A stretch of 4,586 bases of DNA from a virus. Its lineage: Duplodnaviria > Heunggongvirae > Uroviricota > Caudoviricetes. Below, piece by piece: positions 3,001 to 4,586 of the stretch. A program made the position numbers. The DNA is taken from IMG/VR virus record IMGVR_UViG_2541047442_000023. One strand, 5' to 3'. How positions within the stretch are numbered: the first letter of the stretch is position 1; each line of letters starts with the position of its first letter.

Positions 3001-4586
3001 AATGTCATACAGCTTGTTCGTGTATGAGGAGTTCAGCTCTTTCATGATCGGATACAGGTGTTTGCTGAGGTCCTGGGCTTTTTCCATCCAGAGTTGCATG
3101 TAGCAGAGGAGGATGATTTCCTCGTCTGTGAATTGTTGCTGTGGTTCTGCTTGTGCCGACTGCATGTTGCGAAGTTTCTTTTCGCACTCGATGAAGTATC
3201 TGCGTATCTGTCGGCCTTTTTCGTTACGCTCTACCATCGCCGTTTCTTTGGCTGTATCGAGGGTAAGGTGGTAGTCTTTTTTCCCTCGCCCATAACCTAT
3301 TTCCCGTTTCTGGGAAATAGCTATATAGTCCTGATTTTCAACGAATCCGTACTCTTCAATACGTTCTGTAATCCACGATGCAAAGCGTTTACCTACTCCA
3401 AGAAAAGTATGTAAATCACGGGCATTAACGAGAAGAGTGGTTTCGTTGGCGATAGTGCCGTTGAATACGGGGATGCGTTGACTGGTCATGATGACCTCCT
3501 TATTTGTTTAGTTTATAACCGCCAGTTAGTAGCTGGCGGTCGGGTGTCAACTGAGCCAAATAAGAAGCTCTGGGCATATTCCCCTTGCGGGTGTTGTATT
3601 ACGCCTCTCCACCCGACCTTTGTACGGATGTAACTATGCCAAATTGCAGGCATAAAAAAGCCGCAAAGCTATCGGGTGCGGAGACCGCTTATTTGTTCAG
3701 TGCGGTCAGTATGCGATAGCTCTGGAGGATTTGTCAATCAGCGGAATATTGATGAACGGGTAACGGTAAATGCCTCATCCAGAAAATTAACGCAAATTCG
3801 CATCGCAAACTTGCGTTAATTATCTGAAATATCAAGTTAAATCCCCTTAAATGTTTGGGGCACTATTGGGGCAAAATGTGGTTGTTTGGGGCACTATTGG
3901 GGCAAAATGTGGTTGTTTGGGGCATATTTGGGGCAAAAAAGAACGTATAAAGAACGGTGTAAAATTGATTTCTTCATGGTCAAAATGAGGTGTAACAGAT
4001 TGAAAAATATATGCTCTTGGACGATCTTCGGTAATTCTGTGTTTTTAATGCTTCATGGTTTCAATATGTCCGTACATGGAATAATAAAGCACCAGAACTT
4101 TAGCCATTTCTAACCACTCCTCGTGTTATCTCTATTCCGTAGCGATTCGCTACCACTTATTTAAAGATAAGACGTCCTTTTCAGAGTGCAAATTTCACAA
4201 CCACTTATTTGATTTATAACAACTTTCACAAGCACGCAATTTTGTCGCAAAATGACACATTTTTATCTCATCGCGTTTTTTTAATCATAAGAGCGGCTTA
4301 TGGATAATTATTGGAGATGATATCTATTCTCGCTAAGAAGCTGTTGCAGGATATTACCAAACGCGGGTAGAAACACGTCAGTTCACTAAGCTTAGTCCCA
4401 CGTAGCGAAAATATGGCAGCCGCCATACGCCGCGTTAATTCTAGCAATATGATGTCTATACCCAGACGGAGGTCAGTAATGGCAAACCATCGAGGCGGTT
4501 CCGGCAATTTTGCAGAAGACCGCGAAAGAGCATCAGAAGCAGGTAAAAAAGGTGGCAAGAGCAGTCACGGCAAAAGCGACAACTAG

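Follow-up and report, generated by a model that had tools for sequence, protein, structure and literature searches.

A short tandem array beside a prophage attachment site raises the question of which protein its repeats serve. In the stretch of viral DNA analyzed here (the window, 4,586 nucleotides of IMG/VR record IMGVR_UViG_2541047442_000023), six copies of TTGGGGCA lie close to the point where phage DNA gives way to the host gene wrbA. We consider it very likely, with a probability of roughly 85%, that the six copies are arm-type sites, predicted to be bound by the integrase (Int), on the P arm of a 933W-type Stx prophage attachment site. This reading draws on the distribution, layout and conservation of the motif and on the arm-binding domain of the integrase; binding by Int, bridging of arm and core and a role for the extra site pairs are predicted from these sequence features.

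The prophage end and its attachment site

The right-hand 1087 bp of the window (3500-4586) matched several E. coli O157:H7 strains, among them EDL933, 86-24 and Xuzhou21, at 100% identity. Judged by this identity, the right part of the window corresponds to the right-hand terminus of the Stx2 prophage BP-933W, abutting the 5' part of wrbA and ymdF. Comparison of attL (CATCGTTTCAACATGTCT), attR (CATGGTTTCAATATGTCC) and attP (CATGGTTTCAACATGTCT) put the exchange inside GTTTCAA. The same 6-7-bp GTTTCAA is annotated as the attachment site in the GenBank records of VT2-Sakai and the Morioka Stx1 and Stx2 phages, and a misc_recomb 'attachment site' feature is present in AP005153 and AP000422. The junction in the window comprises:

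4058-4064, plus strand: crossover (overlap) sequence GTTTCAA of attR, with phage DNA on the left and wrbA DNA on the right, located by comparing attL, attR and attP
4046-4108, minus strand: displaced 5' remnant of wrbA, MAKVLVLYYSMYGHIETM, followed by phage-derived KH and a stop, read from the sequence

Codons 1-18 of wrbA occupy 4108-4055 on the minus strand and run into two phage-derived codons (KH) and a stop codon at 4048-4046, which leaves a 20-codon stub; the split of wrbA is annotated in AP000422. At attL of EDL933 (L004 2938-3516), the post-integration wrbA is annotated as an intact 192-aa CDS, the first 9 codons of which (MINHILRHV) are phage DNA overlapping the int stop.

The ea22-like/DUF region at about 800-2600 differed from all the complete E. 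coli genomes and phage records that were searched, which covered only 59% of the window, at 98%. Since the ea22-like region differs, the window belongs to a mosaic form of the 933W/Sp5 right arm not represented in those collections. A hokW/mokW toxin ORF (216-428, minus strand) and an Rfam match to the sok antitoxin RNA (366-540, 114.9 bits) were also found, and together they are a known prophage maintenance module at 216-540; an isrK-like match at 126-207 was below threshold. Directly upstream of the antirepressor gene ant (3489-2860) is a match to the Rfam family sRNA-Xcc1 (RF02221; 3530-3618, minus strand), which scored 69.1 bits against a gathering score of 53, and a sigma-70-like promoter was predicted on the same strand at 3737-3708.

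Organization of the 31-bp array

The array was delimited by Tandem Repeats Finder, which reported 3852-3938 with a period of 31, 2.8 copies, 96% matches and a score of 158, and by exact motif search. Its parts are as follows:

3852-3938, plus strand: 31-bp tandem array of 2.8 units, containing six TTGGGGCA sites
3917-3935, plus strand: core-proximal pair TTGGGGCAtatTTGGGGCA, -144 to -126 from the core center, counterpart of the single P-arm pair conserved in relatives
3886-3904, plus strand: middle pair TTGGGGCActaTTGGGGCA, -175 to -157, present in all wrbA-type phages examined
3855-3873, plus strand: distal pair, an exact 31-bp duplicate of the middle pair, missing in VT2-Sakai-type phages

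The first-pass annotation had listed six motif copies at 3854-3940, in two identical 31-bp units and a degenerate third. Exact TTGGGGCA matches indeed start at 3855, 3866, 3886, 3897, 3917 and 3928 on the plus strand and span 3855-3935, and no further exact copy was found in the 4586-bp window. Units 1 and 2 are identical (TGTTTGGGGCACTATTGGGGCAAAATGTGGT), and unit 3 deviates in the 3-nt spacer (tat versus cta) and at the 3' end. The sites form three pairs, with 11 bp within a pair, 20 bp between pairs and a pair period of 31 bp. Because the spacing is 11 plus 20 bp, all six sites fall on one helical face (10.3-10.5 bp per turn). The earlier description of the copies as evenly phased thus holds for the helical face but not for the spacing, which alternates between 11 and 20 bp. 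The distance given there to the end of wrbA sequence, 110-200 bp, is close to the 126-206 bp (-206 to -126) that we measured to the core center at 4061.

The core-proximal pair alone matches what appears to be an ancestral single P-arm pair. The outer pairs at 3886-3904 and 3855-3873 are probably phase-preserving tandem duplicates of it, 31 and 62 bp farther out. The 31-bp duplication seems to be recent, and the copy number seems to be unusual and newly expanded.

The motif on the other arm

In 67 kb covering the whole EDL933 prophage, TTGGGGCA occurred 7 times, with six copies in the attR array and one at attL. This restriction of all seven copies to the two attachment-site arms is far beyond chance. 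The attL copy belongs to a pair on the P' arm, TTGGGGCAcgtCTGGGGCA, in which TTGGGGCA is followed 11 bp later on the same strand by CTGGGGCA. The pair lies at +67 to +85 from the core, within the last int codons (...APDVPQ...). A short motif unrelated to the core is thus present on both arms, with 4-8 copies on the P arm across the phages compared. The first-pass annotation had asked whether a circular attP junction reconstitutes the repeats next to the core, and the circular phage genome AP005153 has exactly this order: array, core, P' pair and int. In the 933W-type attP (L002), 211 bp separate the core-proximal pair from the P' pair.

An inverted TGGGGCA located 103 bp beyond the P' pair was considered as a further arm site. 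It is conserved in many homologues, but it is a coding coincidence, because it encodes M-G-H of the conserved recombinase box II (QMGHS), and it was rejected.

The integrase

The earlier statement that the window holds no integrase or other candidate binding protein is correct for the window, which contains no integrase gene; in EDL933, the int gene lies at the opposite end of the prophage. The integrase of the window's element was assigned from EDL933, to which the right-hand 1087 bp are 100% identical. The EDL933 gene encodes a 436-aa protein with an N-terminal arm-DNA-binding domain (Pfam Arm-DNA-bind_2, PF12167; residues 7-70, E = 6e-26) and a Phage_integrase domain. A PDB sequence search matched the catalytic domain only.

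Tyrosine recombinases of this kind make up the IntBPP-1 subgroup, which takes in the integrases of BPP-1, a Stx2a phage and Gifsy-2 and whose arm-binding domain, DUF3596/PF12167, has a three-strand/one-helix pattern (Smyshlyaev et al. 2021, PMC8138268). The IntBPP-1 proteins are classed there as putative integrases, and their arm sites are not given. A full-text search on 933W, Stx and Gifsy arm-type sites found no description of the arm sites of the 933W-type integrase. In distant homologues, conservation was 37-44% in the arm-binding domain, versus 27-28% in the rest of the protein. Conservation of this domain above the rest of the protein fits the near-constant motif.

Conservation among related attachment sites

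We examined the int 3' end in 80 viral contigs chosen by integrase similarity (68-100% identity). TGGG(G/A)CA-N4-TGGG(G/A)CA was present in all 80 of these int homologues, 28-63 nt before the int stop codon. The residues encoded by the P' pair vary (APDVPQ, APYVPH, VPMMPH...) and its two copies are in different reading frames, which points to constraint on the DNA and not on the protein. A pattern scan of viral contigs with TGGGGCA-N4-TGGGGCA found an Int homologue at 68 of 120 loci. Int at these 68 loci was 50-100% identical, plus two weak matches (23% and 29%); many different host genes adjoin the loci, and the pair was located at the int 3' end wherever the Int match runs to the C-terminus.

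Both arms could be compared in twelve independent attachment sites with Int identities of 26-70%. Each arm carried a pair on the same strand with 11-12-bp spacing, even though the core sites differ and the targets include wrbA, ttcA, tRNA genes and other loci. A second cluster across the core, on the same strand, consisted of two pairs in L012 and of one pair in L097/L046 and in L111, the last with an Int of 29% identity. At greater divergence, TTAGGGCAaatTTAGGGCA and TTAGGGTAtttTTAGGGCA flank a tRNA 3' end in Pseudomonas phage KT1 (Int 29%; motif TTAGGGCA), and CTTGGGACAaatCTTGGGACA and TTTGGGACGaatTTGGGGCA flank the annotated tRNA-His core of Bordetella BPP-1 (Int 26%; motif TTGGGACA). The layout is thus kept with the integrase lineage whatever the core or target, with one exception: Yersinia phage YP3 (L210, PV092592.1 28.6-29.3 kb; Int 62%) keeps the usual P' pair, but no TGGG(G/A)CA P-arm pair was found within 560 bp, which makes it the sole family member examined without a recognizable P-arm pair.

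Four virion-derived genomes were picked by excisionase homology only, with the motif not considered: Klebsiella RCIP0098, Enterobacter CobraSix, Aeromonas AsXd-1 and Escherichia HannyBb (Int 58-66% identical). In each of the four, a single pair on the P arm and a single P' pair are separated by 207-208 bp, and the distance in L097 was also 207-208 bp. Alignment of eight attPs showed that the steadiest blocks were the two pairs, an IHF-like YAANNNNTTGATW before the P' pair and a core-adjacent GCTCYTGGACGATCTTY, and that no repeat other than the pair motif was common to both arms.

Tandem arrays of 3-4 TGGGGCA with 11-bp spacing were also seen in four further IMG/VR records (L067 5945-5984, L110 5746-5788, L034 and L070). 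No Int homologue was present in the fetched stretches of these records; the arrays could represent P arms from additional members of the family, or they could be unrelated.

Copy-number variation

This P arm was found in about 217 of 5426 complete E. coli genomes, and the number of 31-bp units varies. Two units are present in VT2-Sakai, the Morioka Stx1 and Stx2-II phages, the PA phages and most O157 genomes; three in 933W, Okayama Stx2 phage I, 86-24 and Xuzhou21; and four in Min27. Match spans are 358 bp for three units versus 327 bp for two. O104:H4-type phages have two units, with a degenerate outermost site (TTGGGGCG; L002, L126 and L128 compared). GenBank records AP005153, AP005154 and AP004402, reportedly deriving from the 2003 work of Sato et al., contain a repeat_region 'arrangement g / gg; region III' that distinguishes one unit (g) from two (gg). 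Since GenBank already marks g versus gg, the repeat and its polymorphism are on record; a functional reading of it appears not to be.

Variability in copy number among related prophage ends had been named beforehand as something that would speak against arm sites. The copy number does vary, from two to four units, but this is no refutation, since neither the core-proximal pair nor the pair across the core is lost in any variant. That near-identical, viable phages differ in this way suggests that the outer pairs may be dispensable.

Two apparent anomalies were set aside. Megablast matches to O104:H4 phages start at 3885, as if a mosaic boundary lay at the array; weaker homology runs about 130 bp further, and the break reflects two versus three units. 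In phi191, TTGGGCA, with one G fewer, occurs at two sites and int is split; this is most likely a homopolymer sequencing error, and phi191 was not used.

Candidate accessory elements

Other elements near the array were recorded as follows:

3938-3956, plus strand: direct repeat AAAGAACG, two copies (starts 3938 and 3949) with 11-bp spacing, on the core-proximal side of the last arm site
3993-4005, minus strand: candidate IHF-consensus-like TTTCAATCTGTTA, one mismatch, between array and core
4013-4037, plus strand: block GCTCTTGGACGATCTTCGGTAATT, 20-45 bp from the crossover, conserved across attPs with different core sequences
3778-3828, minus strand (the int-coding strand): long hairpin with a 17+6 bp stem, -27.9 kcal/mol, z = -6.3, followed by UUUUCU

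In lambda, the excisionase sites X1 and X2 adjoin the arm site P2, and the two copies of AAAGAACG are by position a candidate excisionase site. IHF-like matches in the window are not more frequent than expected by chance; an IHF-consensus site between the core and the P' pair is conserved in the alignment of related attPs. The same alignment shows the GCTCTTGGACGATCTTCGGTAATT block in 933W, phi315, RCIP0098, CobraSix, AsXd-1 and L012, and not in HannyBb and L097. The hairpin lies 27 bp distal to the array. In phi315/O104:H4-type phages, one of its G-C pairs is replaced by A-U and one pair is disrupted. By position and strand the hairpin resembles lambda tI/sib, which makes it a candidate for terminating int transcripts or for retroregulation of int.

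Alternative explanations

The motif could serve a second recombination protein. An excisionase (recombination directionality factor) of the DUF1233 family, rather than Int, might bind the TTGGGGCA repeats. Its gene adjoins int in 933W; a homologue is found with the integrase in Rac as well and, with a weak match under the Pfam cut-off, in BPP-1. Because Int and Xis co-occur, co-occurrence does not separate the two as binders; furthermore, the array occupies the P arm, the usual excisionase-binding arm. Nevertheless, the motif is not confined to that arm: in all family members it is also present on the P' arm, within int, and for this reason an excisionase is disfavored. In characterized systems such as lambda, the P' arm has Int sites and not Xis sites. 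The dedicated arm-binding domain of the integrase also needs cognate sites, and no other repeat is common to both arms. The Gifsy-1 Xis (94 aa), which is of related size, binds direct imperfect repeats in its attP (PMC2603039), but its site is tripartite and not paired. We regard binding by the excisionase in place of Int as very unlikely.

Only slightly less credible is a neutral minisatellite, generated by slippage and lacking any sequence-specific role. The identity of units 1 and 2 fits such an origin, as do the two, three or four copies found among near-identical, viable phages. However, the 7-8-mer, the 11-bp pairing, the strand and the distance between the arms are kept down to 26% Int identity and with unrelated core sites. 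Neutrality may thus apply to extra units, but not to the motif itself. Least probable of all are replication-origin iterons or a partition or repressor binding array, which the first-pass annotation had rated as equally possible with arm sites. Iterons and centromere-like sites do typically consist of phased direct repeats, but the array does not lie at the initiator genes, and its motif is not shared with the immunity-region operators. The lambdoid O/P and CI/Cro/CII genes lie 47-50 kb away in EDL933; neither TTGGGGCA nor YTGGGGCA was found in the O/P replication genes (L004 17040-18676), TTGGGGCA was absent from the CI/Cro/CII immunity region (L004 15559-17007), and no partition (par) genes are annotated in the prophage. 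Across unrelated phages, the motif follows the integrase gene and not the replication modules. Arm-type integrase sites beside the attachment core, the other possibility raised by that annotation, are strongly supported by the P' pair, the arm-binding domain and the twelve two-arm attachment sites.

Proposed role of the array

Lambda Int is the established model for proteins that bridge arm and core sites. By analogy, the 933W-type integrase would act as a heterobivalent tyrosine recombinase of the IntBPP-1 subgroup, its N-terminal arm-binding domain contacting TTGGGGCA and its C-terminal domains holding the core GTTTCAA. Bending of the ~120 bp between array and core would let Int bridge the two in the intasome. 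A single attP of about 260-290 bp in the circular phage genome comprises the array, the core and the TTGGGGCA/CTGGGGCA pair in the int 3' end. Once the phage is integrated, the array is part of attR, and it would then take part in excision along with the pair at attL and the excisionase.

More speculatively, the unit alleles (two, three or four pairs) could set Int occupancy of attR and attP and hence the frequency of Stx-phage excision and integration, and the integrases of co-resident prophages, such as Rac with its nearly identical motif, might bind each other's arms. We offer this extension as a doubtful but not far-fetched possibility.

Arm sites of the IntBPP-1/DUF3596 integrases would then have the predicted consensus TTGGG(G/A)CA, arranged as 11-bp pairs on both arms, about 207-211 bp apart. 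The subgroup is widespread, as it mobilizes Stx1 and Stx2 phages, Rac and Bordetella BPP-1; the Gifsy-2 integrase, which was not part of this comparison, is placed in the same subgroup in PMC8138268. Such a consensus would be useful for delimiting prophage ends and minimal attP sites and for the design of integration vectors. The array also draws attention to variation in unit number within the attachment site of Stx2 phages, which are clinically important.

Comparison with known systems

The 933W-type integrase shares the DUF3596/PF12167 domain that defines the IntBPP-1 subgroup, of which the Stx2a phage integrase is a named member (PMC8138268); the TTGGG(G/A)CA pair layout was derived here. 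The 'arrangement g / gg; region III' feature in GenBank is the same repeat, and it marks the repeat only, with no function given in the records.

Rac of E. coli K-12, which was used in place of the record 683R6 (a Rac-like prophage with host flanks), is a nearer comparison. Its integrase, IntR, is 43% identical to the 933W-type integrase and has the same Pfam architecture. Rac attL contains TGGGGCAaatTGGGGGCA near the int 3' end, and Rac attR contains TGGGGCA, AGGGGCA and AGGGGCA at 110-145 bp from the core repeat. Unlike 933W, Rac has its core in ttcA and three P-arm sites at irregular spacing, with no 31-bp tandem array.

The attP of lambda, with P1 and P2 on one arm and P'1-P'3 on the other, resembles that of 933W in repeating a short motif unrelated to the core on both arms. 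In both, the motif copies lie within ~200 bp on the P arm and ~85 bp on the P' arm, and the P' sites are tandem, about one helical turn apart, in the int 3' end. Further parallels are a candidate IHF site between the core and the P' sites and, outside the P arm, a hairpin on the int strand. They differ in the motif, which is TTGGGGCA in 933W, and in the arm-binding domain, which is PF12167 in 933W and belongs to a separate Pfam family in lambda-type integrases. In 933W, moreover, the sites form 11-bp pairs in one orientation on both arms, and the P-arm pair is amplified to 2-4 copies. Because the arrangement is of the standard lambda type, current understanding is unchanged: the array is best regarded as an ordinary attachment-site component, which adds arm sites apparently unrecorded so far for this integrase subgroup.
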